DNA from: an uncultured bacterium
Lineage (GTDB): Bacteria > Omnitrophota > Gorgyraeia > Duberdicusellales > CBEUCJ01
Direction of reading: 5' to 3'
NCBI GenBank assembly: GCA_965541615.1
Contig: CBEUCJ010000005.1
Span: 110,251 to 174,250 of the forward strand
DNA length: 64,000 nt
In this document: piece by piece, positions 13,689 through 47,700 of the stretch
How the letters are laid out: the number at the start of each line of letters is the position of its first letter
How positions within the stretch are numbered: position 1 is the stretch's first letter
The notes under the pieces: model-generated
What the model was told of the DNA's origin: nothing
The model's input: the letters and a program-made list of their open reading frames with translations, nothing else
Database searches by the model: none
Made by a program: the position numbers and the translations under genes

Positions 13689-13690
13689 AA

Positions 13691-21544: not shown

Positions 21545-21954
21545 TACTCACCCCCTTCTTTTAAATCCTCTACATATTTAATAGCCTTTGCTTTTAAAAC
21601 GACTTTACCAAATAATCTATTAATTTTTCTTTTTGGAAGACTCCACACTAACTCACTTTCTGCATAATGACCTATTTTGGCTTCTTCTAATTTTTTGCCT
21701 CCTTTTTCAAATTCTAAATCCATTAAAGCATCTGCTCCTATTTGAGAAGCTTTTCTCTTTAAAAGTTTTAAAAAATCTTCTTTACTCATCCATTCATTAC
21801 CTTCTACTTGAATTACACCTAACACTTTATAGGGTTTATTAGGAGGAGAAGTTAGTATTTTAACTTCAGGACTTTCTTGTAGATGAGGAAAATAAGTTAC
21901 TTTAGGCACACAGCCTATCATTAAAAATATTATACAAATTTTTAAAACTTTCAT
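21544..21954 (-). CDS. small lipoprotein (lipobox LMIGC)
   Basis: MKVLKICIIFLMIGCVPK signal/lipobox. Start codon ~18 nt downstream of a perfect promoter, with no SD sequence. Confidence 0.5.
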   Translation of the reverse strand: MKVLKICIIFLMIGCVPKVTYFPHLQESPEVKILTSPPNKPYKVLGVIQVEGNEWMSKEDFLKLLKRKASQIGADALMDLEFEKGGKKLEEAKIGHYAESELVWSLPKRKINRLFGKVVLKAKAIKYVEDLKEGGE

Positions 21955-21971
21955 AAATAAATTTTTTAAAA

Positions 21972-22000
21972 ATTATCCCAAAATATTTTTCAATAGTCAA
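21972..22000 (-). promoter_or_regulatory. sigma-70-like promoter (TTGACT-17-GATAAT) for the lipoprotein/porin/MCP transcription unit
   Basis: rc of 21995-22000 is TTGACT; exact 17-nt spacer; rc of 21972-21977 is GATAAT; ATG at 21952-21954. Confidence 0.5.
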
Positions 22001-22042
22001 GTATTTTAAATCAGATTTTTATGAAAAACTTTTTAAAAGAAT

Positions 22043-23727: not shown

Positions 23728-26700
23728 TTAGCTGAGGCAAGCTTTAAATTTTAAACAGAAAAGTTCACCTAACTTTTCTACTTCATAACCTTTTTCTCTT
23801 AATGCTTTTAAAAAGAGTTCAAGGTTATATTTATATCTTTCACATAGTTCTTCTAAAATTTTAATTATCTCTTTATACCTTTTTTCTATCTTTATAACCG
23901 TTGGGAAAAATTCTAAATCTATTTTGCCTTCTTCCCATCTGTAAATCGTGCATAAATTTGAAGGTAAATATATTTCTTTAAGTTGCAAAACTCCTCTGTA
24001 AATTTCATAAATACCAAAGATTAAGTCTTCTTCGGTAGGTAATGTATTTCCTTCTATTAGTATTCCTTTCTCTTTGAATACAAAAGTTAAGCTTTTCAGC
24101 TTCTTATAAATCTCAAATGGTGGAAAATGCAAAGATACATTGAATATCCTTCCAAAATCAAACTTTATATCTTTTTTATACCTTAACTCCTCAAAACTAC
24201 ATTCAATAAATTCTAAATTTTCAACTCCATAAAATCTTTTTGCAATCTCATAAGGATTAATAAGAATTTTTATTTCTTTGTTTAGTAAGATCTTCTCAGG
24301 CTCTGTCTTATCTATTATTTTAAAAAGACTTATATCTTTTAAACGCAACTTTCTATTAATCTCATTTATTAAATTAATTACTTGTTGGTAATCTAGTTCA
24401 TAAGGTGGCTTTAGTAAATTTCCTTTAAAAATTTGTTGCTCCCTTAATTCTTCTAATAAAAAAATCTCTTTCTTCTGATTAAAAACAAGCCAAAATACTC
24501 TCCAATTCTTTTCATATCTTATAGCTATCTGAGGTATAATTAAATCTATGCCATAAACTTGGAGTTGTGGGAATCTTTTTGCTAACTCTAAAGTGGTAGC
24601 AGGTACCAATAAATCATTTTCTTCATCTACACAACAACCTACCCCAATATCTACAAATGTGCCTTTAATATCTTTCCCATAATGAGCTTCAAACCAATCA
24701 TCGGCTGCTTTCAGTCTTTGAGGATAAGTAGTTAAAGGAACTGAACAGTTTTGAGGATTCAATTTGCAATTGAAAAGAATTATAGCTCCATTAAGCATGT
24801 ATAAAAGTCTTGCATAAAATAATAACTGTTCATCAAGACTTGAAAAAGTAAATTTTTGTGATTTGGGATCATATTCTACTATATGACCCCATTTATCACT
24901 TTTTATCTTAAACTCCTCAACAAATCTTGCTTGAGAAACATATTTATCAATAGAACTCATAATATATTGAATATCAACATTGCTGAAACCTTCGTTTTTT
25001 AAAAGCTTTATTACCTCTTCTGAATTTATTTTTTCAGCTGAAAAACCAGGCAGATTGGTGGCATACACACCTTTACTCGTTTTAAACATCTCTACCTTAA
25101 TTTTTAATCCTTCTTTTTTACTAAAATAATTTATAACTGAGCTTAAAAATAACAATGTTCCACCATATACAAAGATATCTATGATTCTAACTTTATTGTA
25201 ACCAGTAATTTTCTCTTTAATCTCTAACCATACTTTAAAAGCTATCTCTTTAAAACTTTTGTCCTCTTTCATTCTCAATTCAAATTCATTATTGAGCTCT
25301 TTGAAGAATCTTTCTACATTTACTTTATAGCTACCTAATCTATGTTTTTCTATACGACTCTTTAAATAACTTTTGAAAATCATATCTTCCATTTTTTTAT
25401 AAACTGATTCTTCAAACTGCTTTTTTAGAGAATTAGAAATTTCTTTTTCTTCTTCATTAGTTAAACCTATAAATTCTAAAGGGACTCCCATTTTTATTCT
25501 ACTTAAATAAAAATAAGTCTCATTTTCTGAACCTACATTTATCCCTAATAATCTAAGTATCTTTTTAGAGAGCAAATAAAACATACCATCACGCATAATA
25601 TAAATCTCTAAAGCTCTGTCTTGAGGTAACTGCCAAACTACATATGGTAATAATCCATTACATAAAACAAATACTAAACACATACTTTTGGTTTGAAAAA
25701 ACCTTTTTTGCACTATATTTTTTAATCTTTCTTTCTCAAAGTATAATTTTTTGAATTCTGGACTTTTTTTATCTAAATCTTCAGAAAGTTTCTTAAATCT
25801 TTTTTCTATTAAAGATACTATTTGATAAGTTGTAAGAGGTATCTTATTTTCAATAGCTTTTTTAACTTCAGGTTCTTTTAAAAATTCTTCAAATACTTCT
25901 AAGTATTTTTCATAAGCCCAATCTTCATCTTTTTTTAGTGGACTAGAAGAAAAAACATTATTCTTTATTAGAATAGAATTTATCCTCTTCACAATTTGTT
26001 CTACACGTTGCTTACTAATTCCAAATCTTTCTCCAATCTTTTGTAAAGTAAATTCTCTATATCTCTTTTTGAATTCTCTAAACTCTTCATAAGGAATCTT
26101 ATATTTACAGAAGGCAGTTTCAAAATCGAGTTTAGAAATTGGATGCTGGAGAAAGAATTTTCTTTTTAACCATAGTTTATAGATTTCTTTATGTCTCTCA
26201 TTTATCTTCAGACCATTTTCTTTTAACTTCTCTTCAAAAATCCTTACTGCTTCTTTGAAATCTTCTTCTATTTCTCTCTCTATTTCTTTTAAGTTAACAT
26301 TTATTCTTTCTCTATCTCTTTTTTCTCTTTCTTTAAGCAAGTTAAATAATACTCTATTTGGATTTAACTGTAATTGAAGGTCTTCTATACTTAATTCTAT
26401 CTTTTCTTTTCTTTCTTTCTCTTTTAAGTACTCTCTTATTGCTCTTTCTATAATCAGAGTAGCATATGGAGAAAACTTTATGCCTCTTTTGGGATCAAAA
26501 CTTTCTATTGCTAAAATCAAACCATGCCGGAATTTTCCAGTCCCTTTATAAGGACATCCAAAGGTCCCTATATTAATTAATTCTGGTAGTTCTTCTGGAG
26601 GTCTTTTAAATCTTTTCTTAATTACCCATTTAACTAAGGGAATATTTAAAATTATTAAAGCAATTAAAGCAGCTTTATTACCTTTGTGTAATTCCTCAAT

Positions 26701-29700
26701 AAGCTTATTTAATTCTTCTTCTTTAAGCTTTCTGTTTCCTACTACTCTTATCTGACTTCTTTGAAAATCTATTAAGTCAGGAATAATTTCTTTTATTCTT
26801 TTCCAATCACAAAAGGTATAAATTATTTCTTTTCTTTTTTTTCTTTCTAATGGTTTTATACCTGCAGCTTTTAAAGCATTATGCCAAGAACCAAAAAAGA
26901 AATAAGCATAATGAGGAACATCTCTATATCCAGCTTTCTGCCATGATACACTATTTCTTGGATCTTTAACTTCTGGAGGTGGATTTTTTAACCATTCAAT
27001 AATTTTTTCTTTTGTCCATTTTTTAACAGGAGAAGATGTTTTTTTCTCTCTAAAAATAGATACTATATCTTTACAAGAAACCTCGATCTTTCTTTCTATC
27101 TCTTGCCACAGATTTTGGGAAAGCAAATCTTTTCCTTTTTCTTTAATCGAATCAAAATTTTTCTTTATATAATTAAATCTTAATAAAAACTTTTTAATAA
27201 ACCAATCTCTGGCTTTATCTTCTAAAGAAGGATTAAATTCTCTTAAAACATTTATAAATTTTTCTAACATAAATTTTTGTTCATTAAAATCTGGTTCTTT
27301 AATAGTAAAACTACTTACAAAATCTATGTTAAATATTTTGAGAGGATTAAATTCTATTCTTAAATTTGAAGGAGATCTATCAGCTATTCCTATTAGATAA
27401 GCACCTAAAGAAGCTTCTGCTAAAGAAAAAGAAAGCTCTTTGATAAATAGTTCATCTTTAAAATAAAAAGTATAGTATTTGTAAAATTCTTCAAGATCCA
27501 TTTTGCCTACATATTCAAGGATAAAATAATCATCTTCCTCTTCAAAAGAAGGCACATAAAAACCTAAAATTTTTAAAGCTTGCATGCCTTGCTTTGCCCG
27601 GCAGTAAGGCATTTCTTTTATCACAACTCTTTTTTTACCGTGTAAAGTTTTTAATTCTATTCCTACTGTCAAACTCTCATTTTCTTTCTTTAATATACCT
27701 TTGAAAAATAAAATCTTTACATGAGAAGTGGAGTATTTTTTCAATAAAATTTCTTTAATATCTTTTAAAAGATCTTTAAAATTAAGACTTGAAGAAGCTG
27801 AGATTTTATTTAATATCTCTTCTAATGTGTAAAAAGGACAGAAGCTAAATTCTTCAATATTGTATCCATTCATTTTCAATATCTTGTATTCTCCTTCTAT
27901 CTGTTGAGCGTAAGAAGTAATTATTATTTTTTGAGAAGGCAAAATAAAAATGCCTGCTGTGTCTATTTTTGTATTTGGAGGTTCATCTATTTTTATATTT
28001 TCTTTTTTTATTCCTTGCAAGATTAAATAATCTTGAAGTCTCCTAACAAACTCTCTTTTTTCTCTTACTTTACCTACCATTAATACCTTTGTATCCTCAC
28101 TAAAAATTTCTTCATCAAAAAATATGTAATCTCTCCATTCTTCTTTTAAATTTTCTATCTGAGCTTGAGGTTTAATATGAGAAAAAAAGATCTTTTTATT
28201 TTTGAGAAAAACTATACAGATGCACTCAGTAAAGATATCTTTGAAAGGAACTTCTATCTTAAGAAAACTTGATTCATGGAAACAGATAAAATCTGAATTA
28301 GAAAATTCATAAAAATTTATTTTTCTTAATTTTTGAAGAATACTCACTAAAACTTTTTCTTTTGATTTCAATATTTTTGAATAGAGATTTTCTAAAGAAT
28401 TTATGTTAGGTATCTCTTCTTCAAAGAAATAATCATCTAATCTAATTAAAATCCCTCTCTTTTTTTCAGGAAGTCTTAAAAAGATATCTTCTTTTTCAAT
28501 CTTACCTGTAAATACAATTTTTTCTTTCTTTATCTCATAGACTGGACCAAAAGCTTCTAAAGTTAGATGAAATCTATTAGAAATTCTCTTTATCTTTTCT
28601 TCTAAATCTTTAAGTTGTGAGAAAATCTCAACACCATACTTTGCTGTAAGAGTTATTGCTATATCGATATCTGAATGAGATTTCCATTCTCCTTTTGCAA
28701 AGCTTCCAGTAATATAGTAATTTTTAATAATTCTTTCTTTTTGATAAGAATTTAAAAGATTGAGTAACTCTACAAATTTAAAAGAGATTCTTTTTAATGG
28801 AGAAGAACTAAAATGAGATGAATTTTTTACATAAAAAGATTTTACCACAAATACAGGATAACATATCTCTTTATATAAAATCTGTTCATAATATTCTTTA
28901 TACAAAATATCTCCAAAATTCCTTACAAAATTATCCAAATCTTTATCTTCATCAGAATCTTTTTTAGTGCTAAATCCTGTGATTATAAAATACTCAGTCT
29001 GGAAAAATCTTTTCATTGCAAATTCTACAGTCTCTTTGAATTGAGTTTTAGAAATGTTTATTAAAATAATATGAGGTCTTATACTTAAAGAGAGTTTTTT
29101 AAAATCTTCATTTATAAATTCTATATTTTTTACATTATTCTTAAATGCTACTTTTTTAGAAAGTTCTACAAGCTCTTTATTTATCTCTACACCATAAACT
29201 TTTTTAGCTCCTAACTTTGAAGCTATAATACATAAATCTCCTCTACCAGAACCTATATCCAAAATGATCTTTCCTTTAAAAATATTCTTAAATTTAAGCA
29301 TAACTTTGATGATAGCTATAGTAGAAGGATGTAGATACCAAGCACCTGATTGTAAGTAAGGTAAAAATATTAATCTTTTGGCAGGTTGAGCTGTGGGGGT
29401 AAAGAGTAGCCAGTCAATTACTACTAATTTTTTAGTCTCTCCTTCAAAAAGCTCTTTGTTTTCTATAAAATGAAAGATCTTATTTTTATCTGCAAAAAGC
29501 TCTCCTTTCTTTAAATCTAAAGAGATCTTTTCAAAATCTTCTTTAATTTCTAACTCTATAAACCTTATTCCTCTTTCATTTAAATTCTCTTTTACTATCT
29601 TCTTTTCAGGACCAGAACTTTTAGAGATCAGAATACATTTAACATTTCTCTCTTTTATTTTCTGAAAAGTAAAATCTAAGAATTTCTTTATCTTTTCTTT

Positions 29701-32700
29701 TATCTCTTCATTTAAATTTGAATCTCTCTCTGAAGTGAAATTAAGATGGAGTAAAGCTCCTTCTTTTTCTTCACTATAAAAAACTAAGATTATATCTCCA
29801 TCAGAAAATTTGCTTTCAGTCAAATCTTTAAAACCTCTACCCACACAGAGCATATTAGTTAAACCCGTAATAGAAGGAGAAATAGGTGTGTAAGAATCTA
29901 AACAATACTTTTTAATAGCTGAACTTGCAAAAATTACATCTTTCCAATATTTTTGCAGATAATTTTTATTTCTTAAATTTTCCAGAGTCTTTAAAATCTT
30001 TACAAAGAATTGGTAACTGCTCTTTGAAGTATTTACTTTTTGTTTAGTATTCCATCTTACTAACCAGAAAAGCTTATGGAGGAATGCAAGTGCAATTAAG
30101 TAAGGGAAAGATTCTAATTCTAAATTATTTAAAGGATGTAAAGAAAGATTTTGATAAGTATTTATTAAATTTATAAAGCTATCAAATTCTAATTTCTCAT
30201 CTATCTCATAAAGATCTGTTCTGGTCAAATCATAAGCTCTTATCTCTTCTCTTGCTGTATCAAAATCAAAGACTCCAACTACTTCTTTATTAGAGAATTT
30301 AAGATTAGACAGAGTGTAATCTCCATGGATAATAGATTTAGGTAACTTTAAATAAGTCTTTTGAAATTTCTCTTTTAGTTCTTCTATTACTTTTAATATT
30401 AAAGGATAACTTTTGATTATTAACTCTTTAAAAGGTGAATCTTTTTCTTCTTTTACTCTCTTATAATAATTTTGGAAACGAATTAACCTTTTGTCTCTTC
30501 CTCCTTTAAAATTCATCAAAGGATCACATTCTCTATACGCAGAAGCTCTTAATAAATTGCGAGGAGATAAGAGTGTATAATGGTGTAATTGAGATAGTTT
30601 CCTTAAAGCATCTTTAAATTGTGAGGAATTTAGTTCTTGCAGAGAAAGAGTTCTTCCTTCTATATAAGTATAAAGAAAATAAATATTGTTATTAAATTCT
30701 GTGAAAGGTAAATTATATTTGTTCAAAATTATTTTGGGTAAAGGAAAGTTGGGATCTTTCTTATTAAGAAAACTTATCAAATAGTATTCTAAAATAGCTC
30801 CTTTTTCATCCCAAGGAGATTTTTTAAGCACAAATTTTTTTGTTTCTGTAATGATTAATACTATTCCTGATATATTTGAATCGACGGGCTGAATCTCTTT
30901 TATCTTATCCAATTTATAATAATCTGAAACTCGCTCTGCTTCCTGTAAACTATCAAAATGACAGATTCTGTGTCTGTGAATCTTTTCTTCTCTACTGATA
31001 GATGAACTTGCTCTTTTTGCTAACTGTTTTTGGGTAGAAATCTTTGAAGTTAAATCTATTGAAAGAGGTCTTCCATCTTTATCTAAAATTGGAAATCCAT
31101 CTTTTGTTTGTTTAAATATTATTTTTATAGGTTTACCTTTTCTAACTATAACATCTACAACTGCATTAGAATAACGAGGAGATTGAAATATAACTTTTCC
31201 TCCCAAATATAACTGTCCCCAAGAATTTAAAGTAAAATTACAAATTTTATGGTTAGTTAACTTCTTTAACTCTTGTGGAGTAACTTTTTTGTAAAAATAT
31301 CTTTCTGTTTCTTTTGAATCTAAGTTGTAAATGAGACTGGTATATTCCCATTTATTCTCAACAGGCCAATAAACCTTTGTTATTATTGCTTTCTCTAAAC
31401 TCTCTCCTTTCATTAATAAATGTGCGTAAGTGCTTTTTGTCTTAGTATTTGTAATCCATTTTCTACCAGCAAAATATATGCTTTTATTTTTCAATAGAGG
31501 AACAAACTCTAACCTTAAAAGATCTTGAACAGATCTTAACAATCTCTCTAAATCTGAACAGAATATAGTAGTTAAAAATGAATCTAAAAGTTTGCCTCTG
31601 GCCTCATCATAAGCTAAAATGAGTTGAATGTACCTTTTTGCTGATATTAAATAAAGAGCAGTTGTAATACCTTTATAAACGAATCGAATGTATTCTGTTC
31701 CAGGTTCAGCATCTTTTAATTTTGCAGTTTTTTTACCATTACCTATCTTTACTCTCTTGTCACTGCTAACTCTTTCTATTAAAGCGATCTTATCTTCTGA
31801 TTTTTTTGGGTATGGATTAGCTAAAACATATCCGTATTTTCTAGCAATCTCTTTGACTTTAGATGAATCTAAAGAAGAACTTGAATTTCTTCTTTTAGAT
31901 TCTTTTCTTGCTTGGAAAACTACTCTTTCCATAATTTTTTCATTAAAATCATTATTAAAATCGATAGGACTGCTGGTCTTGTAAGAAGTAGATTTAATTC
32001 TTTCTAAAACTTCTATAGGAAAGCCTTGCGTGCGGATTTTTTTCCATATTTTATTTAACTCTTGGAATATCTCTTCTTCATTAATACTATTTATCTTTAA
32101 TGTCTTGTGTAATTTTCTTATTTGAACTTTCCATTTTTCAGGATTAAATCCTTTTAAGATTAAGAGTGTTCTTTTTACAGCTTTAACCTTTTCATCAGAA
32201 TTAGATGAGTTAATATGTGAGAGACATCTATTCAATAATCCATTGAGTTCAAAAGGATTAATAAAAGAGCCAGAGGAAAAATAGAATGAGATTAGAATCT
32301 TTTCTTTTAAAGGAAATATTAACCATCTTCTTTGGAGATAAAAATCATCTCCTTCTTTTATTACTTTAGCATTTGTATTATATTTTTTGAGATAAAAATT
32401 CAGTGTCTTAATAATTTCTTTTAACACCTTTTTATCAAAGTAACCTAAACCTACTCTTACATCTAAATCTCCAAGTAATTCGTAAGGAACTTTTCTGTCT
32501 CCTAAAGCAAGGATACTTCCAAAGAGTTCTAATTCTATGTTTAAACTGTTCTCTGTTTCTTTGAGAATATCTTTTAGCAGTCTTACATTTAAAAATTTAT
32601 CTTCAAATATAGAAGAACTGGAATTCTTTTTGAGAATCTCTTCTAACACTTTTCTCACAAGGATCTTTATATTTGTTTTTTCCTTTAACTCCTCTTGAGA

Positions 32701-35700
32701 AACAGAAAGTCTTTCAATTAAAGAATTAATCTTTTCAGAAGGATAGTTCTTAATTTCAAAGAACTTTTCCTTTATATCTAACTTAAGAGACCAACCTTCT
32801 TTTTTTAGTTGATAATGTAAATCTCTAAATCTCTCTTCAAATTCTTTCCTTTTCTCTTCAAAAAATTCTTTTTCTTTTTTCTTTTTTTCTTTTTGAAGCT
32901 TTTTTATTTTTCGGAAGAAACTTTTTGAAGATTTTCTTCTTCTCTTACATAGTTTTTGAAATACTTCTTGAAATCTCTCGTAAAATTCCTGTAAGATTTT
33001 TTTATACTCCTCATAAACCTTCTCAAACTCTTTATGGACTTCTTCAAAATCTTTACTAAATCTCTTATAAATTTCTTCAATTTCTTTTACAGGATAAAAT
33101 TTCTCTATTTCTTTTAAAATAAAGATTAAGATTATTTTCTCTTCATTTTCTTTTATCTTTTTTATTTTTTCCTCTGCATCTTTAACAAAATTCTCAAATA
33201 CCTCTACTCTTTTCTCTCCTTGAAGAGCCTTTTTAAATTTGAGAAGCTCTTCTCTTTCATTAAATAGGTACTTTATTATTTGAAAAATCTTTCTAACATT
33301 AACAGTTTGAGGTTTTTTCTTATACTTTACATCAACAACTACACGATTTCCTTTATCATCCAGTATAGGGTAACCTTCTCTATCTTCAATAAACTTTACA
33401 AAACGTTTCTTTCCATTTATTACTTTAGCCTCAACTTTAGCTTCAGGAAACTGACTAATGCTAAGCCAGTAATCTCCTACTTCTAAAATTCCCTTTTTAT
33501 CTGTTCTAATATTGGAAATAATATAGCTCTTTAACTCAGTGCCATCTGGAAGGATTAGTTTACCACAACTCAATTTTTCAAAAACACCAATTAACTCTCC
33601 TTTCTCAAAAGATTCAGGAGAGGCGTTTTCAGGTACTTTATAAATTAAAGATAATTCTTTGGTAATTGAAGGTTTTCCTTCTTCATCTTTTACTGTAACA
33701 GATAATATAAATGCTTTTTTTCCTGTAGGATTCAAAATTTTAATAATATCAGCTCTCTTATGACTGTAAAGTTTGCCAAAATTTACCCAATACTTACCAC
33801 CGAGATAAAGTAAACCACATTTATTTAAACGATAATTATGGATTTCATAATCTTCATTTAGCAGATTGAATTCATCTTCAGATAGCTTTTCCCAGAAAGA
33901 AGTTGTGTACTTTCTAATAGATTTTTTCCAAACAAGGGCAAATTCTACATCTAAATCTGTTTCTAAAGAAAATACTCTAAAAATGATCCCTTCTTTAACT
34001 ATTAATCCTACTTTCTCATTTTCGTGTGCAGCACCAAAATGTGCCCAAAATCGTGGTTTCTTAGGCAAACTACCATCGACTAAAGGTCTTCCTCCTCCTA
34101 TCCATAACATGCCTTCTTTTTTTAAGTAGGTATAAATAGTAACATCTTTATACTTAACAAATTTTCTAAAAGGAATTTTCCCAATATAAACATCAATAAT
34201 TTCTCCTGTTTTATTGTCTCTAACCTGCAAAAATTCTTTTAAGAAACTATCCTTTAAGAAAAATATTCTCATAGGTATACCGTCTTTCATCTCCAATTCA
34301 TACTCCAAGTTAGCATAAGCTTCTGACTTTATGTGGGATTTACCTAATCTTAACTCTCCACTTTTAGGAAGCTTTCCTTTAATGATTACATGCCCTAATT
34401 TTTTTATATACTCTTGCTTTTCTCTGTGAGGTATCTCATCCTTATTTATTACTTTTATTTTCTCTTTACCACCAAAAGACCTCTCAATCAATTTCTCCCA
34501 GATATACCTTCTCAATTCTTTTTTATTTAGATCTATTCCTCCTTCTTTTGGATGAAAAATTGCTTTCTGCAAAAGGATTATTCCTTTTTCCCCTTTATTG
34601 AGAAGTTCTTCTACTTTTTCTTTTGTTATCTCTTTTATAAGTGAACTAGAGGAAGTTAGCTCTTTAATTGTCTCTTCTACTCTATTGGTAATCTTAAATA
34701 AATTTAAATCATCTTCTCTTATATATCTTTTCTTTAAAAGCGCCTTTCTTATCCATTCATGCCATCTTTGCCAGTAGTCTTCACCGAACAATATTATCTT
34801 GCGCTTCCTTGTTTTCTTAGTTTGGATTAAAACGAGAATTTCAAATAAAATATCTAAAGTCCTAAAATCAGCAGGAAAGAATACAAAACTATCACTGTGT
34901 TTTGTTAAAGCTATTTTCTGTAGGAAAATATAGTTCAGTTTAAGAATTAAATTTGTAAATACTGAGAAGTTGTATCTTTTTGTGACTACTCCTACAGATT
35001 TTGCATTAATTAAATTTTCAGTTTGAGCTTTCTTTATTCCTCTGCCTAAAGCTTGATAGATTCCACTTTTAGATAAATGCAATATATTAAAATTTTTCTT
35101 AGCTAAATAAAAACTTAACTCTTCTGCACAGTTCCCATTTCCAATAGCATAAAAGACTTTATTTATCTTCTCTATTTCTTCTTTCATCATTTCTAATTTT
35201 TTCCTAATGAACAAAGAGGAAGAGGATTTCTCTGCAGAAGAAATATAAATTATAGAAAATTCTTTTGATTCTTCACTGAAAAGAGAAGGTAATAAAGGTC
35301 TCTCTGTTTTATAGATAATTTTAAAACCTGCTTTTCTGACTATTGCTGAAAGTTCTTTTAATCTGTAAAAACCTTCTGCTAAATTTTTGGTATTTTGAGA
35401 AGAGGTAAATTTAGGATTAATAATAATCAATTTACCTTTAGTTTTAAGAACCCGTTTAACTTCAAAAAGTGATTTGAAAGCATCCATATGGGGGAGAGAA
35501 TAAGGAAATATTACTACATCAAAAAAATTAGATTTAAAAGGAAGATGATGGACATCGGCTACTATTGTTTTTAAATCTTGGTTTTTGACAGCCTTTGCCA
35601 TTTCAAGTACAATATTCACACAAATAATTTGGTTATTTCTTGCAAGTTCTTTTTCTAACTCTCCTCTTCCGCTACCCACAGAAAGAATTTTTTTATTTTT

Positions 35701-38700
35701 TATTTCCCGAGATAAAAAGAAAATTAGCTCAGGCATTGAAATAACAGTGTAAAACTTCAAAAATTTAAGAGGGATTTTCTTCCAACCTTCTTTACCTATT
35801 TGTTTGTAAGCTTCATAAGCAAAAGGTGGGAAATTTTTCTTCAAGATAGAAGAAGCTCTTCCATTCTTAGAAAATTCACTGATTAACTTGCGTAATTTAT
35901 CTAATACTTTCTTTATCTCCTTTTCTTTAGGTTGAACTCCATAAGGAAAGGAGTTTAAAATCCAGGATAAAATTATTTCCTGCTCCTTTTTAGAAAGACA
36001 TCTAAACGCTTGAGTCAAAATTTCGTTTTCAAAGATGCCCTTCTTTAACTCTTCTAATCTTATCTTGTTTATTACCTCTTCTTCAACAGAGATTCTCTGG
36101 CCAGAAAGAATCTTCTTCAAAGTCAGAAGATTTCTACTATTATGGTTAATGTGACTTTCTCTTAGAGGAGCTTCTAAAAAAATATTTCTGTACAAAATTC
36201 TATTATTCTGCTTACGTAAATCTTTATAGAATCTCTTTAAATCTTCTTTAACATAATCTTGAAAGGGAAGTACTGTTTTACTATTCAACTTCAGCTCAGT
36301 ATATCTATCGACTATCTCATATAATCTTATCACTCCCTCACTTATTAAATCTTCATAATAGTCTGAAGAGGGATTAAAAATTTCAGCTACTACCCTCTTA
36401 ACCAGCCAAATATAACTCTCAACAAATAAACTCTTTGCCTTCTTATCACCCTCTTGAATTTTTCTCATTAATTCTACTTCTTCAGTGGAACTAAAAGTTT
36501 TTGGATTGTTATAATAGTTTTTTATAGTGAAAGGAACTGAAGGCTTCTTTCTTTCTTTCTCAATCCCCTGGCAAATTTCTAAATACTTTTTTGCTTTTAC
36601 AAGTAAATTTTCTCTCTCGGGGAAATCAGTCAAATTCTTTCTTAATATTCTTATTAAGTGTTTGAATTTACAGATTGCTTGCTTGTATTTCCTTTGAGAA
36701 AATAACTTTTTGCCCTTTTGATAAAGAGTTTGTATACACGACAATTGTTTTTTTAATTCTTTTTGTTGCTTTTTTAACTTTTGTTTCTCTAATCTTTTCT
36801 CTCGCTTTTCTAACTTTTCTTTTCTTCTTAATTCTTCAATATGACTCTTTGCCTTTTCAGAAAGCTCCTCTTCTTCTCTAATAGGAATCACTCTTCTTTT
36901 TCTTATACGAATTATCTCACTAAATAACTTCTTAGCTTTTCTATATCTACCTTCAGAAAGCAATTTTTCTGCTCGAGTATAGAGCTCCCTAGAAGTCTCT
37001 GATCTCAAACTCTGCAAAAGTTGAGATCTTTTTAATATCTGTCTTTTTATACTTTTTTTAACATCAACAACTAAAGGATTCCCTTCAACATCCAGTATGG
37101 GATTACCTTCTTTATCTTTAATAAACTTTACGAAACGCTTTTCTCCATCTACCACCTTAGCTTCAACTTCAGCTCCAGGAAAGTAACTAAATTTACCCCA
37201 ATAACCCCCTACATCTAAAATCCCATTAGTATCGACTTTGATATTGGAAATAACATATGTCTCTAATTTGGTGCCATCTGGAAGGATTAACTTATCACGC
37301 CTCAACTTCTCAAAAACCTCAACCAAATCTTCTTTAGCAAAAGATTCAGCAGGAGCATCTTGAGATACTGTATAAATTAAAGAAAGTTCTTTAGTAATTA
37401 AAGGTTCTCCTTTTTCATTTTTTACTGTAGCAGCTAAGATGAATGCTTTTCCCCCTGTAGGATTCAAAATTTTAATAATATCGACCCTCTTATAACTGTA
37501 AGGTGCACCAAAATCTATCCAATCCTCTCTACCACCAAGATGAAGTGAGCCATCTTTACTTAAACGATAATTGTGGATTTCATAGTCTTCATTTAGCAGA
37601 TTAAATTCATTTTCAAATAGTTTCCCCCAGAAAGAAGTTGTATACTTTTTCTCAGATTTTTTCCAAACAAGGGCAAATTCTACATCTAAATCTGTTTCTA
37701 AGGAAAATACTCTAAAGACCACCCCTTCTTTAACTACCACTGCTACCTTTTCGTTTTCATGCTCAATACCAAATTTTGCCCAATATCGGGGTTTCTTAGG
37801 CAAACTACCATCGACTAAAGGTCTTCCTCCTCCTATCCACAAAATACCTTCCTTTCCCAAATAGGTATGAATAGTAACGTCTCTATACTTATCAAATTTT
37901 CTACGGATGATTCTCCCGATATGAACATCAATGACTTCTCCTGTCTCATTATCTCTAACCTGCAAAAATTCTTTTAAGAAACTATCCTTTAAGAAAAATA
38001 TTCTCATAGGTATACCGTCTTTCATCTCCAATTCATACTCCAAGTTAGCATAAGCTTCTGACTTTATGTGGGATTTACCTAATCTTAACTCTCCACTTTT
38101 AGGAAGCTTTCCTTTAATGATTACATGCCCTAATTTTTTTATATACTCTTGCTTTTCTCTGTGAGGTATCTCATCCTTATTTATTACTTTTATTTTCTCT
38201 TTACCACCAAAAGACCTCTCAATCAATTTCTCCCAGATATACCTTCTCAATTCTTTTTTATTTAGATCTATTCCTCCTTCTTTTGGATGAAAAATTGCTT
38301 TCTGCAAAAGGATTATTCCTTTTTCCCCTTTATTGAGAAGTTCTTCTACTTTTTCTTTTGTTATCTCTTTTATAAGTGAACTAGAGGAAGTTAGCTCTTT
38401 AATTGTCTCTTCTACTCTATTGGTAATCTTAAATAAATTTAAATCATCTTCTCTTATATATCTTTTCTTTAAAAGCGCCTTTCTTATCCATTCATGCCAT
38501 CTTTGCCAGTAGTCTTCACCGAACAATATTATCTTGCGCTTCCTTGTTTTCTTAGTTTGGATTAAAACGAGAATTTCAAATAAAATATCTAAAGTCCTAA
38601 AATCAGCAGGAAAGAATACAAAACTATCACTGTGTTTTGTTAAAGCTATTTTCTGTAGGAAAATATAGTTCAGTTTAAGAATTAAATTTGTAAATACTGA

Positions 38701-41700
38701 GAAGTTGTATCTTTTTGTGACTACTCCTACAGATTTTGCATTAATTAAATTTTCAGTTTGAGCTTTCTTTATTCCTCTGCCTAAAGCTTGATAGATTCCA
38801 CTTTTAGATAAATGCAATATATTAAAATTTTTCTTAGCTAAATAAAAACTTAACTCTTCTGCACAATCATAATAGAAGCTATTTTTCTTAATATTTTGTG
38901 AACCAATGATTGCAACTGCAGGTTTTAAATTTAAAGAATAGATATTGGCTACATCTGATAATACTTTGTTCATATCTATTTTTTTAGACCTTCTTTTACA
39001 ATTTTTATCGAATAATTCCTTTATTTCAGAAAGAGAATCTTTTACAACAAAGCTTTTTAAATCTTCTTTATCTAAAAAACCTTCTTTGGCACTTTCTTCT
39101 AAAATTTTCTCTAAACCACCATAGAAATCTGTATCTAATAAAACTACAGGTACATCTTTTTCAATAACACCTTCTTTTTTAAGAGCTAATATTTCAAAAA
39201 TTTCATCTAAAGTTCCAAAACCACCTGGTAAACTTACAAACCCACACGATGATAAAACAAAAGCTAATTTTCTGCTGTAAAAATAATGAAAGAGTAAATT
39301 TAAACTCGCATAATTTTCTGTAGACTCAAAAGGAAGTCTCATTTTTAAACCTACAGTCTTTTTTGCCTCTTTTGAGACTGCTTCCATTAATCCTGGACCT
39401 CCACCAGTTACTATAAAATAATCACCACTTAGCAATCTACCTAAGTCTTTGGCTAAGTTATAGTAATAAGTGCCTTCTCTTTCCCTGGCTGAGCCAAAAA
39501 CACCAATACCTTTTTCGATCGATGATAAGACTTTATTGACTTTTTCTATCTCTTCTTTTACTTTTTTAAATCTTTGAAGTATTGAACTTGAAGATTTTGA
39601 ATCATCAATAATTGAAACTTTCTTAATAAGAATAAAAAATATCTCTTGGTCAATAAATTTCTCTATCTCTAAAGAAAACCTAAAAAGCAAATCTTTTATC
39701 TCTTCTTTTTCAGGTAATTTATCTAACGGAAAAGGAAGGAATTTCTTTAGTTTTTTATCTATAAATTCTTTTCCTTCAGGATGAGATATAATTATCTTTC
39801 CATCTTCTTTTAATACTCTAAAGGCTTTTTCTATAATCTTTTCTTTCTCTTTCAAATTAGACCAGACTGCATTAAAGAAAATATAATCTATAGAATTTTC
39901 TTCTAACTCATCTAATAAAGGAGAAACATCTTTATGATAAATCTCTAATTCGAAAATCTCATTAAATTGAGAATTTAATTTTTGATAATTTTCCTTTAGT
40001 TTCTCTATCATCTCTTTTGATAGCTCACAAGCAATTACTTTAGAAGGTCTGTATTTTGCAAAATAAGAAAATAACACTCCTGTACCTGCTCCTACATCTA
40101 AGATTACACTTTCAGGTTTAATTTGAGCTTCTTTTACTATCCTTTCTAATCTTTGCTTTAAATATGAGGGGAATCTATCTAAGCTTAAAATATCTGAAGT
40201 GTAATCAAAAAATCTTGCCTGAAGGTTGTAATACTCTTTGGTATTCTCTTTTAGTGAAGGAGGAGTTTCAACTAATTTAAGGAAAATAAGCAAATCTTTG
40301 ATTTGGGATTGAAATTTTTGAGGTAAGAACGATAACTCTATCTCATTTAAAGTCTTTCTTTTTGGAGGAGCATTGATTTTAATAACTGAAAGAAGTTTTT
40401 CTAAAATGGGCTTAGGTAAAACTTCTTTTAAATTTTCTTCTATTATTTTCAAAGCTAATCTGTACTGATTTTGAACATCTTCATAATGCCCCAGATTCTT
40501 AAACAACTGAGAATAGAAAGAAAGAATAATCTTCTTTATCTTAGAATCTATCTTTGAAGACTCAATTGGAGAAGAAGATCTTTCTAAAAATTCTTTTATT
40601 ACTTTACATTGCTTGAGTATCTCTTGTGGGGAAAATTCATTATTTATTATTACTCTTGCATATTCTTCTTCTCCAGGAAATAAATGGGTTTCAAGAAAAT
40701 AAAGAGCTCTTTTTTCTACTTGGGAAAGTTCTAAATAGTCAAAGTATCTCTCTGATTTTACCCAACGATATATGAAATTATGAATTAAATTCGCAGGTTC
40801 AGTTTTTACATACCACTTATCATCGAACTCATCTAAGAAACATCTGTATCTTAAAGCCTGTTCTCCTTCAATTATATAAATTTTATCTTTAGGAATTATG
40901 TACTCTAAGATGTCACCTGTTAAAGCGTCAATAAGTATTTTACTATCTTTTTCAATGCAAATATCTTTTAACTTAGTATTTTTTAAGTAATCTTCAACTT
41001 TTTTGGCTCTTTCAGGAGCTTTTATTTTTACTTCTTTAATTTTATTTTTCACCTCTTCTCCTACCAGTTCTATTAACCTTTTCTCTCTGATTTCAGAAGG
41101 AGCATCTAAAACCTCATAATCTAACTCCTCTTTAAAAAGTGCTCTTTTTCTTTCTTTTTCTATTTTTCTTAAATCTATTTTTAATCTATCTCTTATAATC
41201 TGTAAGTAAAAAGGAAGAACAAAAGGCTTTCCTTCAATTATATGATAGACACTAATCATAAATCTATCTATTTCAAAAGTATTATAAGGATAAGGTCTTT
41301 TGTCTGTTCTTCTGTCTTCAGGTAAAAGATATCTATCTACCTCAACAACACAAATCTTATCAGCTAAATACTTTAAATCTTTATCCATATATTCTTTTAA
41401 CTTCTTTATTAAATATCCTTTTCCAGAAGCAAATTCTCCTCCCAAAGCAATTATTAACCTTCCTTTTTTGAGTTCATACATTTTCTTTAATCTGTAAGCT
41501 AAAGTTTGAGGTGCTTCTTTTATGTTTAAATAGATGCGTTCTGCTAAATGACGTAAAGCAAACATTCTCCATTCTTTGTAAGATAAACTAAAGATACCAT
41601 TGATTATCGTAGCTGTATTCAAAATTATTGCTAAGTTATCTTCTTTTACAAAGAAAGAAAAGATACCTGCTAAAAGAGCAATTAAAGAACTCATAAATAC

Positions 41701-44700
41701 ACCTGCACCACCTATTGTTACTAATTGATGAAAACTACCTATTTTAGGATAGGTAATCCCTTTTTTTGAAATCTCTATCTTTAACCAATATCCTAACTTT
41801 AATCTGGCAACTAAACTGTGAGCAAATTCATGTAAAAAGATAGAGACCAAATATGTAAAGAACACTAAATTAATAATTTGAACAGGCTCAAATAATCTTC
41901 CAAATCGAATAAAGACCAAAACAAAAGAAATCACCAAAGCTGAGATTAATCTGTGCCAACTTAGAGCTATCTCAGAAGTATGTATTGAAGAAGAGGCTTT
42001 TTTCAGCTCTTTTGGAATATCTTGAAAATAAATTCTGGATATATTTTCTGTTATTCTCTTTACTTTGCTTACATTTTTTCTTTCCATTGCTTTCAGAATC
42101 TCTTTAAATTTTTCAGATAAGACAATTTCAAATTGCAAAGCGCAATATTTTTCTTTTCTAATTCTCCTGTAAATTTTAAAAGCTAAGTTTATGTAAAATA
42201 GAATTGAAAGAAAAGAGATAGCTATAGGAAGATTTTCTTTTTTAACTTCATAACCTATTATTGGAAAGTAATAGTGAGAAAATTTATCTTCAAAAAACTT
42301 GATTTTACCAAAATGTGAAAGGAAGGTTAAAATAATCTTTATCTCTTTTTGGAACTTTATTATTTCTTTTAAATATTTCTCCTTATCTATTTCTTTACTG
42401 AAAATTCCTTCATTGAAGAGCTCTATTCCTATCTCAAAATCTCCTTCAATAATTCCTAACTCCAACATAAAAATTAAGTTAGCAATAATTACATCTATAT
42501 GATGAGAAGTTATTATTAACTTTGGAGAGAGCTTTTCTATAGAGCTAAGTTCTTCTAACAAGAAAGATTTTGAAGAAGGATCTAAAATAATCTCTATGAA
42601 TTGATCAAAGAATATAGAATTTAAACCCCTGATATCATTGATAATCACATTAAATAATCTTTCTAAAAAGAAGGGGATCTCTTCAGAAAAGATCTCTTCA
42701 TTTACAAAATATCTGAATATAAACATATCCAAAAATAATTTTTCTCCTGAAAGAAAACTTTCTTGAAAACTCTTTGAAAAATCATTTAAAATAATTTTTC
42801 TTGTTATATAAGCTAATCTCAAAAGAGATTGAGGATCAAAACTAAATTTATTCTTTTCTAAATTCTTAAATATATCAAAGAGGATCTCAAATGGCGCTTT
42901 TTCAGAAAGTCTCAAAAGTTGTAGAGTTGCTCTTTCTCTTATTTTTCTATCCTGATTTTTTAACTTTTGAAGTAAATCATAGCAAGAAAGAGAGCTCAAT
43001 GAACTACTTGCATTTTTGGACTCTTTTCTTAAAGGAGGCAAAATTTCTTTTCTTATCAAAATATCCATAAATGCACTTAAAGCTAAAGCTGTATCTTTTG
43101 CTTGAGGAATTTCTAATAAAGTTTGAGGCCAATTCCAAAGGATAACAAAAAGATTTGAAGTAGAAAGACCACCTGTAATTGAAGCTAATTCTCTGATGCT
43201 ATTTAAAAGGGTAGCTCTTAAACTCATTATCATTTTTATAAGAGTTCCTATTAACTCAAATTCATCTTCTTTCACAAAGATCTCAACGATTTTATCTTCA
43301 ACTTTATATCTATATTTATTAAATCCTTCAAATTGCCATCTATACTCTAAGAGCTGTGGCAAAAAGAATAAAGGTCTATAACTTATCTGTGTCTCCATTG
43401 CTTTTAATGTAGAAAAAAGCTCAAAGATTTCTTTTGATAACTCTTGAAAAGCAGAAAGAAAATAGAAACTTCTGCCTATCTCTAACAATAATTCTTGAAG
43501 TTTTGAAATCTCCTCCAAACTAACATTCTGAACCCCTCTTAAATAATCTACCAATTTTATAAATTCGATTAATACTATCTCAGTTGAATCTAATAAATCA
43601 GACTGAACTTTTGGTACTTTACTTCTGATAAAATTAAATTTATTAAATACTCTTTGATAATAAGGTAAATCAAAGATAGAAGAACTGGTTTTAGAAATTT
43701 TTTCTTTTGCTTCTTTAGAAATTGTAATTTTATCTTCAATCTTTTCTTTTTTCTTTCCTTTCCTTAGAAACTCTTGGCTTTGAGATCTTTTTTGGAATCC
43801 TATTCTAAAAATAGATAAAATCTTTTGAATAGGCAAAATAGAAGAACTTGAAGAAGATAAAAGAGCTTTAAAGATTTTAAGGTAATCTAATAGATGTCTT
43901 ATACTTGAATAATTCAAAAATACATTATTTTGAGCTTCTTTTGCTCTTCTGTAAGCTTCTTTGGGATTTTTAAAGCATTCTAAAATCTTTCCTGCTGTCT
44001 CTTCAGGAGTATACTTTAATCTTCCTTCTATTTCTTTTCCTTTTACTCCATATCCATACTTATCCTCTCCTACTAAGTGTTTTGGTCCTCCTACATACCC
44101 TGCAATCACTAATTTTCTCTTACTCATACCTTCTACAATAGTTAAACCTAAACCTTCTTTTAAAGATTTCTGTAAGATGATTGTAGCCTCTCTCTGTAAA
44201 GCATTTATTATCAAAGGTGCATAATCTATGTTAATAATATAAATTTCTCCATTCCTCCAGATAGTTCCTTTAGGAATCAATTCTCTTTTCAAAGGTTTTG
44301 TCCTTCTAAGGTTTAAAGAATAGATTAATCCTTTTAGAATCTCTCCTGCTTCTGGATCGTCTTTAGCCATATTTCCTGCATAAACAAGCTGAATATTTAT
44401 ACCTTCATCCTCCAAAGCTTCTTTTGCCATCCTAAAAGCTTCTACTACTCCTTCAGGATCCTTCCAAGGATCAAATCTTGATATCTGTAGTATTAAAGGT
44501 TTATTTACATTTATTCCTAAACTCTCTAAAACATAGAAGATAAAACCTTCAGGTAAAGGTATATTTTTTGGAGATAACAGATTAATGCTTGCAGGAACAA
44601 GATATATAGGAATTTCATTTTCTAATTCTTTCAAAACAAATTCTTCAAAATGGAATATAGCTGCATCATATTCTTTAATAAAAGGTAACAGGTAATCTAC

Positions 44701-47700
44701 AATCTCTTGATTGGGAGAAGATAAGTCTATATGACATCTCCAAATTTTTTTTATATCTTTTTTAACTTTAGATAAAGCTAACAATACAGCTAAAAGAGGT
44801 TGAGGATCATGGCAAACTACAATATCAGCTTTTTCTAATTCATCTTTAATTCTATAAGCTATATATTTACTGTTTTCTTCATAAATCTTTTTCATCTCTT
44901 GTGTAAGCTTAATTTCTCTATTTCCTTGCAACATATTATGGAAAACTTTTGTAACCTCAAAGAATCTTTTATCTTTAGGTTTTATAACTACCCACTTTGT
45001 ATCTAAGCCTAAAGAATTTGATAAAGGTATCATCCATTCTAAAATCTCAGCTACTCCTCCGCCTACTCTTGTAGAATTTATATGCACTATTTTTACTCCT
45101 TTTAACTCCTTGCTGATTTTTCTTATTTCATTTATCTGGTTATTTATTCCTTCTATTACTCCTTTAGAGAGTCTTTCTTTTCTACACAGTTCTAATAAAA
45201 GTTCAACATATTTATTGAAACCTTCTTTTCTCCAGCTTAAATATTTCTTTTCCAATTCTAAAGTTTTATTTATAACTTTTCTGTAATCTGTGGGCTTTTT
45301 TGATTTTTTAAATATATAAAGTAAATTCTTTCTATCTACAATTAAAGGCTTTATTATTCCTAATTCTACAGCTAAATTTTCACATTCTCTTGCCTGTTTT
45401 TTCAACTCTATCAGAGTTTTCTGGATATCTTCTTTTGAAATACCTAATCTTTGTGCAATTCTGTCGATTAACTCTTTTATAAACCAATTCATTTCAATCT
45501 GTGATTCTCCTCCCAAAAATCCCACAGAAGGTATTCCTCTTCCTTTTTCTCTATATAAAGCCCAGCTGAATATGCTTAAAGGTAAAAACTTTCCTTTTTC
45601 TACTTCTAAGATTACATAATAGACATCTAAAAATTCAGATAAAATTTTATTTAATTCCTCAGATTCCTTTAATTTTTTAACGAATTCTTCAAATACTAAT
45701 GCCTTAAAGTATCTGTAAGATGATAACTCATCTTTAGAGAATCTACCTTTTAAAGAATTTTTGAGATAAAAACTAAATTCCTTCTCATTTAGAATTTCTC
45801 TTAAATAATCTGAGAATAATTCTATTTCTGAAAGGAGCACTCCTATGCGAGTAAGATAAAAAATGTAAGGATATTTTAGAGTAACTCCTTTGGGAAAAGG
45901 TGTAACCAAAATCTTTCCACACAGTAATTCTACAAAAGAAAGTTTTTTATCTTCTACTCTTGCCCATTTAATAAAATCTTTAGACTCTTCAACAATAAAA
46001 GCTATTTTTCTTACTTCGAACCACTCACTTTTAAAATTCTTAATCCAGTTTAAGAATTTATCTCGAACTTTTTCATTTATAAAATAATTCAAAATTAAAT
46101 TATCTACAGGTGAAAGTTCTTTAAAAATTTTCAATAAAGATTTATTTTCTTCTAAAAATCTCTTTATTATCTCCTCTTTTAAAAATAAACCTTCTTTAAT
46201 TTCTAAACATCCAGATAAGTTGTTTACTAATTCTTTTACACCTTTTTTAGAATAAATCTCTCCTTTTAATAACCCTTCTAATTTCTTTTCTACTTTACAA
46301 AATTCTTTTTCTAAAGCTCTTGCTTTCTTCTTACCTGAAAGAGCTAAATCTATTCCAAGAGACATTAAGAATCTTTCTCCTTTCTTCTTAACTTTTTCTA
46401 AAAGCTTTTCATATATATCAAAAACATCAACACCTTTTACTTTTTTAGGTATCCTTAAAGGAAATCCTTCTAAATACTCTAACATCACTTCTTCTTTAGA
46501 AGGAGGCAGATACATTAATTCTTTCTTCTTAAACTTCTTTTTAAACTTTTTGACTAATTTTGAAAACTCAATTATTTCTTTTTCTAATGATTCCTGAGCA
46601 TGCATTTTCTTTAAGTTTTCATCTTTTATCTCTTTGAGTTCCTTAAAGAAAGTAGCTAATCTTGCTCTATACAAAGCTACAAAGCAGTTTAGAATATCAC
46701 CTTTGGGAATATTTGAATAAAAGTAAGCTAAAATCAAACTAAATACAATTTTTGCCCAATCTGAAGGATCTAGTTTGAACTTTTCTATTTCTTTTTTGGT
46801 TAAATTCTCTAATTTTCTATAGAAGAAGGGAGGAAAGACTCTTTCATAGAGGTAAGTTTTATACCTTTTAAAATTGTCTATGAAAGACTTTATCTCTTCA
46901 GATACATTTAATTCAACAGGAGGTGCTCTTAAAAGAAGTGGTTCTCCGTAAAAAGGAGGTTTAACAGGTATAAACTCCTTTTTGGTATAGATATATTCAA
47001 AATTTCTCTCAATTTCATTAAAGAGTGTTTTTACAACTTCTCTTAATCTTAAAGGATATTTGTAAGGTGAATGTATTTGGAGTTTGGTCCCTAAATAAGT
47101 TTGGCAAATTTTTAAATTACTTACGATAGCTTTTATACACAAATAAATATCTATTCCATACCTACCAACATCTGTCTTAAAAAATAATTCTTCTTCATCT
47201 TCTAATAAAGCTTTGAAAGCATTTTTATTTATAGCATAAACTCCTCCTATAGGTTCTTCTATCTCATATCCAAAAAGAGTAAGTAAAATAGGTCTTACTA
47301 TGTGATCAGTAATTCTTTTTCCCTCAATAGGTCTATTAAATACAGGAAATACAAAATCATAACCTGCCATTATAGGTTCATATAATTTTCTTATCCACTC
47401 AGGCTGAATTCCCTGGTTTTCTTTTCTTAATAAATCTGCTTCTAAAATAATCAAATCAGAATTTAAATTTTGTGCTTTTTCTATCATCTCTCTAATCGCC
47501 CATCCTTTTCCTTCTTTTCTTCTTTCTAAAACAACAAATTCTCCATCTATCTTTTCTTCTTCAAAAATCTTTTTGATCTTTTCTTCCCATCTTTTACCAA
47601 TAAAAGAACTTATGATCAAAAATTTAGCTACTTTCTCAGGATAAATTTTTAAACCTTCTTTAGCTGTCTTTAAAACTCCTTTTAAAGTCTTCAACTCCTT

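Follow-up and report, generated by a model that had tools for sequence, protein, structure and literature searches.

The DNA analyzed here, a 64,000-nt stretch of contig CBEUCJ010000005.1 (assembly GCA_965541615.1) that we refer to as the window, carries a giant open reading frame (ORF) on its minus strand (23728..63867), which runs for 13,379 codons without a stop in DNA of 28% GC. At least 15 distinct domain types are found by Pfam along this ORF. These include an HPS-like OMPdecase with SIS, trehalose synthase (TreT)/GT1 twice, TPR, several class-I methyltransferases, GGDEF, GNAT, Rce1-like, M48, LOG and APH kinase domains, a Pol-beta-type nucleotidyltransferase and sigma-70 regions 2 and 4. 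Within the ORF lies a large module twice, and the two copies, which are identical to the last base over one part and diverged over the other, are the subject of this report. We name the upstream copy B and the downstream copy A, and their diverged parts B' and A'. All coordinates are those of the window, and all gene features named in the repeat region lie on the minus strand.

Positions 37952..38865 (core of copy B, aa 8335-8639) are base for base the same as 34217..35130 (core of copy A, aa 9580-9884). The exact run measures 914 nt, and the adjoining base differs between the copies at both ends. The run starts at codon position 1 in both copies, the offset of 3735 nt is 3 x 1245 codons, both copies are in frame within the one ORF and the reading frame is open across every repeat junction. 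An earlier note on this DNA, the original prediction, had claimed this perfect identity, the offset and the preserved frame, and all of it is borne out by the base-for-base match. It had further placed homology of about 80-90% over some 900 nt beyond the core. Between A' (33317..34216, aa 9885-10184) and B' (37044..37951, aa 8640-8942) we measured 81.1% identity over 908 columns, 8 of them gap columns, and the peptides quoted in the note for the two copies, ETGEVIDVHIGRIIRRK and KTGEIIDVYIGKIPFRK, are both present in the translation. Taken as a whole, copy B covers aa 8335-8942 and copy A aa 9580-10184 of the protein. The proposed self-BLAST was run with blastn on the whole 64-kb window and gave one outstanding alignment (33317-35130 against 37044-38865, 1824 columns, 90.6% identity, E = 0). 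The 914-nt pair is the sole strong repeat of the window: the next-best is 84% identical over 159 nt, and all other internal repeats in this comparison are at most 84% identical and at most 754 nt long. General repetitiveness of the giant protein was ruled out, as only two internal paralogous pairs are found in it at E < 1e-4. At the divergence of A' and B' the core would be expected to hold about 170 differences (around 60 synonymous and 110 non-synonymous) and it holds none. A chance origin of the core identity is excluded.

The core encodes most of a degenerate LOG domain (LOG'), an SSSS linker (38377-38388 in copy B, 34642-34653 in copy A) and the first ~140 aa of a beta-rich module, the remainder of which is encoded by B' and A'. 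The first ~160 aa of each copy match PF03641 (Lysine_decarbox) and PF18306 (LDcluster4). An AlphaFold2 (AF2) model of the LOG' of copy A (aa 9548-9745) reached a predicted local distance difference test score (pLDDT) of 80, and Foldseek placed this model with crystal structures of type-II LOG proteins (PDB 5wq3, 5zi9, 1wek, 9us2) at TM scores of 0.78-0.82 and an E value of 5e-14. Both signature motifs are replaced in LOG', GGGPGLM by SKSGIYQ and PGGFGTLDE by PADFRTLDI, and the patterns PGGxGTxxE and GGGxGxM that mark an active LOG are thereby missing from the duplicated domain. The degenerate LOG-like domain that the original prediction had described is thus confirmed by family match, modeled fold and motif loss alike, and the linker and the start of a beta-rich module were also found in the core where it had put them. 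LOG' probably is a non-catalytic partner or a ligand-binding pseudo-enzyme, since both signature motifs are gone from its sequence. Directly upstream of copy B (38866..39594) lie a further SSSS linker with a leader (39523-39594), a non-duplicated canonical LOG (about 39013-39522) that retains GGGPGLM and PGGFGTLDE, and the beginning of LOG' (its first strand and loop). The two domains LOG and LOG' are paralogues with 25-29% amino acid identity. The duplicated domain shares the LOG fold and the PF03641 match with the type-II LOG/SLOG superfamily, and an intact LOG adjoins copy B; it differs from that superfamily by the loss of both motifs, and in copy A it is a LOG/LOG' hybrid.

The beta module that follows the SSSS linker comprises ~440 aa and is modeled by AF2 as mainly beta with high scores (pLDDT 92.4, predicted TM score 0.87). 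Between the two copies lies a unique spacer (35227..37043, aa 8943-9547) with a TPR/helical part, a region resembling sigma-70 region 2 and a class-I S-adenosylmethionine (SAM) methyltransferase (about 35419-35682). The methyltransferase is solid (PF08241, E 3e-14) and confirms one part of what had been claimed for the spacer. The sigma-like module that was also claimed corresponds to a sub-threshold Sigma70_r2 match (E 0.007); the TPR match is weak, and the collinear region of a relative has weak Sigma70_r4 matches.

The change from identity to divergence is abrupt. By the Nei-Gojobori method the 304 codons of the core have a synonymous divergence (dS) of 0 and a non-synonymous divergence (dN) of 0, while the next 300 codons have a dS of 0.46 and a dN of 0.17 (dN/dS 0.37). 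All six 50-codon bins of A'/B' show dS values of 0.34-0.66, a step without a gradient. Such an abrupt change of synonymous divergence along two paralogues is the mark of a conversion tract. The differences between A' and B' comprise 120 transitions and 44 transversions, affect all base pairs and lie mostly in third positions. A' and B' are under purifying selection, which also speaks for translation of the ORF across both copies.

Independent data come from a JGI metagenome contig (Ga0190309_1000087, 31,347 nt; hereafter L002), which was found by scanning JGI contigs with copy B. Its first 14.7 kb are 98.74% identical to window positions 38032-23292, which identifies it as a sister strain from a separate data set. 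The contig begins 81 nt inside core B, crosses B' and the entire spacer, and then core A and A' as well; it thereby corroborates three of the four repeat junctions. Since in L002 a core tail precedes B' and a core follows the spacer, the core occurs at least twice. The boundary between near-identity and divergence falls on the same base in L002 and in the window and therefore predates the split of the strains. Core A of the window differs from core A of L002 at 12 of 914 positions, which equals the genome-wide strain divergence, and from core B of the window at none. In the A'/B' flank, both strains share 180 fixed differences between A and B, and 38 sites are strain-specific singletons. Hence the closest sequence within the tract is the paralogue and outside of it the orthologue, which is the classic signature of concerted evolution. 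The recent gene conversion between older duplicates that the original prediction had offered as one explanation is supported by this pattern together with the step in dS. Drift since the strain split predicts about 12 differences between the cores, and the probability of finding none is about 6e-6. The absence of differences in the window therefore means either that conversion has recurred in the lineage of the window or that the assembler has merged copies which are ~99% identical.

The sequence context indicates which copy stands in the older setting. Sequence collinear with the first ~400 aa of the spacer (aa 8943-9340) comes after the beta module in the proteins P0125 and P0127 and in the locus L007, and L003 and P0126 have LOG-LOG' ahead of the module. 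Because the same order is found in these other giant genes, copy B is the copy in the ancestral context, LOG-LOG'-SSSS-beta-TPR/sigma-like. Copy A has a methyltransferase before it and unrelated sequence after it. Upstream of the core the two copies appear unrelated at first (about 30% identity). The 32 residues ahead of core A (copy A leader, 35131..35226, SSSS LFIRKKLEMMKEEIEKINKVFYAIGNGN) nevertheless resemble the start of the canonical LOG module ahead of copy B: the copy A leader reads K-SSSS-LFIRKKLEMMKEEIEKINKVFYAIGNGN and the LOG module starts K-SSSS-ILQRFKKVKEEIEKVNKV. At the DNA level the leaders match at 39 of 50 nt (78%), with a score of 41 against 21 +/- 2.2 in shuffled sequences (z about 9). 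Because of this leader homology, the original unit would have started with the SSSS linker at aa 8092 and ended where the beta module ends, at aa 8942; this 3' end coincides with the end of the alignment of the beta-module family. By this comparison, copy A lacks about 215 aa, removed in frame: the LOG domain and, from LOG', the first strand with its loop. The deletion junction (35130/35131), which falls in the loop connecting strand beta-1 to helix alpha-1, is also the precise start of the identical tract. In the AF2 model the hybrid LOG' takes VFYAI of the leader as its strand beta-1, and for this reason the hybrid is probably still a folded domain. The original prediction, whose reading of the duplication has held, had missed this deletion junction at the start of the tract, and also that the host ORF is an Omnitrophota giant gene (see below).

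Taken together, we consider it rather probable that an old module duplication had its 5' half homogenized by recent, probably repeated, gene conversion between the copies. We infer an order of events as follows. The ancestral unit would have been SSSS linker-leader-LOG-LOG'-SSSS-beta module (aa 8092-8942), followed by the TPR/sigma-like region. About 2.55 kb of it, from the linker to the end of the beta module, would have been copied in frame to a second linker downstream of the methyltransferase module. The copies would then have diverged to a dS of about 0.46 under purifying selection, and it is this selection on the diverged copies which suggests that each of them is expressed and serves a purpose. 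Copy A would then have lost ~215 aa in frame, and this loss would have joined the leader and strand beta-1 of LOG to helix alpha-1 of LOG'. Finally, non-reciprocal conversion of the RecA type between the copies would have wiped out all differences over 914 nt, to the point that the cores might be exactly 100% identical in the cell as well. The edges of the resulting island would be set by the deletion junction, where homology ends, and by a point inside the beta module. Since the 15-20% divergence beyond would block the extension of a heteroduplex, the island may be self-limiting, and since an established island would perpetuate itself, the same boundary could be common to both strains.

Several observations weigh against this history. 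First, the perfect identity may in part be an effect of the assembler, which could have used one unitig twice for copies that are ~99% identical. Second, the fourth junction, from the upstream flank into core B (38866/38865), is seen in the window only. Third, diverged homologous sequence flanks the tract on its 3' side (81%) and is absent on its 5' side, where homology ends at the deletion junction and resumes as the leader homology 630 nt further upstream in copy B. The deletion junction explains the lack of a diverged 5' flank, but a single one-sided event fits it equally well. Fourth, of the 81 core positions present in both copies of L002, 2 differ, each of them a singleton, and homogenization is accordingly imperfect in some strains.

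The explanation that fares best beside repeated conversion accepts the duplication and an old homogenized tract as real, and holds that the cores differ by ~1% in the cell and were collapsed by a de Bruijn-graph assembler or a polisher. We regard this as unlikely. The ~12 differences per 914 nt expected by drift are of a level that is easily lost by bubble-popping; the L002 copies do differ at the two positions mentioned, and the L002 contig breaks inside the repeat, as short-read assemblers usually do at a long near-exact repeat. On the other hand, the window contig crosses both 914-nt copies, which suggests long reads or good pairing, and the window itself is without a sign of collapse; the two L002 singletons lie near a contig end.

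That one recent event created the identity together with the junction we judge quite improbable. Here, copy A would have been overwritten by the part of copy B between helix alpha-1 of LOG' and the middle of the beta module, with a homologous end at 34216/34217 and an illegitimate or mis-registered LOG/LOG' join at 35130/35131. Such an event would account for an identical tract that starts exactly at the junction, at codon position 1 and with no diverged flank on that side, and since LOG and LOG' are paralogues, mis-registered pairing between them is conceivable. However, the sister strain has both the junction and the step boundary as well, and the core tail of L002 shows that the ancestor was already homogenized. 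As junction and boundary are older than the zero divergence, a single event is insufficient, and further homogenization or collapse would still be needed.

The original prediction had itself named an assembly artifact as the other possibility. In its strong form, a second copy created by a false loop through a single repeat or by a chimera of two strains, with only one real copy, this is very improbable. A perfect repeat with a sharp boundary can resemble a mis-resolved graph, but the independent L002 assembly contains the path from B' through the spacer into core A and A' as well as a core tail before B', and the alternative pairing of the four junctions would leave a 3.7-kb circle without replication functions. 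The ORF also stays open across all junctions, and the divergence of B' and A' (dS 0.46, dN/dS 0.37) is at the level of paralogues and not of strains. An artefactual duplication is thus largely excluded on the sequences compared, and what is left of that proposal is a possible sharpening of the identity by the assembler.

Just as improbable is that the identity is kept by selection or a dedicated mechanism, either programmed excision or amplification (phase variation) of the 1,245-codon interval or a diversity-generating retroelement: the in-frame repeats have the same direction and sufficient length for RecA-dependent deletion, but no recombinase or reverse transcriptase is among the Pfam matches of the ORF or its neighbors, the A'/B' differences are third-position transitions and not adenine-specific, no Rfam element and no plus-strand gene were found in the region, and no variant without the interval was found. 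The retroelement was rejected, with substitutions over all base pairs and no reverse transcriptase domain among the Pfam matches. An opposite-strand gene or an RNA element at the repeat was likewise rejected: opposite-strand ORFs of the repeat region do not exceed 87 aa, and the Rfam search of it gave zero matches. Two 914-nt direct repeats in frame would by themselves favor the in-frame deletion or amplification of the 3,735-nt interval, and we predict that they form a hotspot of in-frame copy-number change in the giant gene.

Gene conversion between duplicates is well known from bacteria, with tufA/tufB and repeat-bearing surface proteins as examples. Hybrid genes of the Lepore type arise by unequal recombination between tandem paralogues. 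Copy A resembles them in that it joins the start of one LOG paralogue to the next, in frame and with the interval deleted, but its fusion is one between adjacent domains of a single polypeptide, and the event would be deduced from its product. Gene conversion and concerted evolution of duplicates are textbook matter (reviewed in PMC3924818). The locus shares with the described cases the tract of identity inside older, diverged paralogues, the sharp boundary and the greater closeness of paralogues than of orthologues within. It differs in that both partners lie in one reading frame, 3.7 kb apart, and in that one end of the tract lies at a deletion junction and not in diverged homology. Duplication and gene conversion are ordinary genome evolution, and the current understanding is not overturned. 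What is particular here is a recent identity tract with breakpoints at linkers and module ends, which abuts a domain-fusion junction and shows the same step in two strains.

The importance of the locus comes from the gene in which it lies, as giant multi-enzyme genes of Omnitrophota became known only recently. We assign the gene to the Omnitrophota giant genes because it is a multi-enzyme ORF and because homologues of the neighboring CheA come from Omnitrophota. This CheA has one 99% identical homologue and then hundreds at 50-77%, and every name among them that identifies an organism is Candidatus Omnitrophica or Omnitrophota; two relatives of the beta module (L007, L008) are also Omnitrophica/Omnitrophota metagenome-assembled genomes (MAGs). 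In a relative whose CheA is 77% identical (L006), the contig stops at the 3' end of its giant gene. Giant genes of Omnitrophota have been described as 'Archaeovorin'-type genes (West-Roberts et al. 2023, bioRxiv 10.1101/2023.11.21.568195) and as a 'multi-enzyme metabolic cluster' class (Nielsen & Lui 2026, bioRxiv 10.64898/2026.06.07.730766). The ORF of the window resembles them in its Omnitrophota host and as a single ORF of more than 10,000 codons in which numerous unrelated enzyme domains follow one another; its glycosyltransferases, methyltransferases, peptidases, Lysine_decarbox/LOG, GGDEF, GNAT and TPR domains all appear in the lists of those papers. There are also differences. With 13,379 aa the protein is at the small end of the class, and it contains only a few hydrophobic segments. 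Archaeovorins were described with at least 30,000 aa and with SecA-like, C39/S8 peptidase, HEAT and NUDIX domains (West-Roberts et al. 2023), but in the ORF of the window SecA, C39/S8 peptidase, HEAT, NUDIX and dockerin domains have no Pfam matches at E <= 0.01. The gene hence fits rather the looser multi-enzyme class of at least 10 kaa of Nielsen and Lui than the strict Archaeovorin type; a trait of the class is a conserved type II secretion-like locus upstream, and the window holds 133 nt upstream of the ORF start. Nielsen and Lui (2026) found repeats in giant genes to be generally old and not recent expansions at the nucleotide level. The 914-nt identical tract differs from this and constitutes a counter-example. 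It shows modules that are still being copied, trimmed and homogenized inside a giant gene, at base resolution, in two strains and with breakpoints at linker motifs.

The beta module was matched by nothing in Pfam even at E <= 1, by no PDB sequence profile and by no PDB structure in Foldseek (best E 0.13, TM 0.1), and only weak MORN-repeat-like matches were obtained among viral models. An exhaustive HMMER search recovered it in 32 clusters at E < 1e-30. The word-indexed protein search had found 1 match for copy B and 2 for the beta-module profile. A scan of the GTDB species representatives with copy B gave zero matches, and one with a four-sequence alignment of the beta module gave 3 loci only. 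The carriers are either stand-alone proteins of 500-700 aa or proteins and fragments of 2,000-7,600 aa, and some of the giant proteins (P0123, P0128) carry the module twice. Around the module L003 (13 kb), L005 (8.9 kb) and L007 (20 kb; an Omnitrophota MAG of 56% GC) are open in one frame from end to end. As judged from these matches, the beta module is a recurrent, so far unnamed building block of giant genes. It adds a new domain family of ~440 aa, confidently folded by prediction and not classifiable, that recurs in many giant proteins.

Some further relatives of the module are worth recording. A remote third copy in the giant gene of the window lies at about 30988-31710 (aa ~10720-10960) with 24-30% identity. 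A stand-alone beta-module protein of 670 aa with a Pro/Lys-rich tail (P0001) is encoded at L001 (GCA_975902295.1, contig CDLKHZ010000044.1, 1793-6817), directly downstream of a 998-aa TPR protein; the TPR-like helix that follows the module in copy B is kept in P0001 too. This arrangement suggests that the order in the giant gene corresponds to a small operon elsewhere. The locus L003 (JGI contig Ga0180301_10000411), a 13-kb stretch with 35% GC that is wholly open in frame, starts with 449 aa that are 78% identical to the C-terminal end of the giant protein of the window (L003:2-1367 against 23728-25107). Beyond this part, the open frame encodes LOG-LOG'-beta, GH130, M54 peptidase and HATPase modules. 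P0123 likewise has the C-terminal-like region ahead of the beta module. These sequence comparisons point to shuffling of modules between giant genes.

The serine runs that mark the linkers of the duplication recur throughout the giant protein. It contains 31 runs of at least three Ser, where 3.2 are expected, and 29 of the 31 are directly followed by L, I or P. The distance from run to run is 19-1307 aa (examples of runs in the studied region are 39583-39594, 38377-38388, 35215-35226 and 34642-34653). Since the runs use mixed codons, the SSS(S)-[L/I/P] motif is selected at the level of the peptide. A conserved nucleotide site at the linkers, such as a recombination signal, was rejected on the same grounds. 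No Pfam domain is interrupted by a Ser run; the runs fall between domains. They flank almost every module, the duplicated unit included at both of its ends, and in several cases they do so closely. The GNAT domain (3871-3987) lies between runs at 3843 and 4001, the Rce1-like domain (4049-4137) between those at 4001 and 4190, LOG-LOG' between 8092 and 8494, and the hybrid LOG' between 9548 and 9739. Some other giant proteins with the beta module are likewise enriched in Ser runs (22 in P0152, all followed by P; 26 in P0139; 16 in P0177; 12 in L003), and the enrichment is absent from some other giant proteins. The motif is not mentioned in West-Roberts et al. (2023) or in Nielsen and Lui (2026), and the former state that the cleavage points of giant proteins are unknown. 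On the basis of their position, the Ser runs may be candidate module linkers or processing sites. A more far-reaching reading, which we put forward tentatively and hold to be rather doubtful, would see the SSS(S)-[L/I/P] motifs as the delimiters of giant-protein modules, either as processing sites at which the polyprotein is cut into enzymes of gene size or as obligatory linkers, and the stretches between them as cassettes that are duplicated, deleted, shuffled from one giant gene to another and homogenized by conversion. If true, this duplication would show cassette-level evolution while it is under way. The observation of the Ser runs may matter more than the duplication itself.

Smaller observations concern the comparison of the window with its sister strain and with a short third contig. 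Inside A', the segment 33559-33630 has ~20 differences and a 6-nt indel in 70 nt between the window and L002, against an average of 1.26%, and its pattern is not a simple copy of B'. The divergence between the two strains is also raised near the 3' end of the giant gene (24000-26000 and 27000-27500). Such places may be small patches of recombination from a third source. A 670-nt contig of low coverage (L004; ENA ERZ1742239 NODE_305001, coverage 2.9) contains at 387-519 a 133-nt stretch that corresponds to window positions 35129-34997 and 38864-38732. It matches the first 133 nt of the core at 99% identity, starts 1 nt from the 5' boundary and has flanks unrelated to the window. Possible explanations are a third, partial copy elsewhere in a related genome and a chimera due to low coverage. 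In the database protein of this contig (P0219), TGA is read as Trp.

The DNA of the region has a GC content of 26-32% and a uniform strand skew. No tRNAs were found in the window. Downstream of the giant gene, 23 kb on the same strand contain a chemotaxis cluster, an STT3-type oligosaccharyltransferase, GT2 glycosyltransferases, a rhodanese protein and a radical-SAM enzyme. The second paralogous pair of the giant protein consists of the trehalose-synthase/GT1 modules (60241-61617 and 43825-45288; aa 751-1209 and 6194-6681), which are 34-41% identical without similarity at the nucleotide level and represent an old duplication. Outside the giant gene, two intergenic stretches downstream of it are ~84% identical (13489-13647 to 21672-21829, and 13664-13730 to 21942-22011). 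One adjoins an MCP gene and the other the radical-SAM gene, and they may represent a repeated regulatory or mobile element. A tandem duplication with 75% identity (15572-16301 and 16385-17129) lies inside the gene for the four-domain rhodanese protein (15549-17246).

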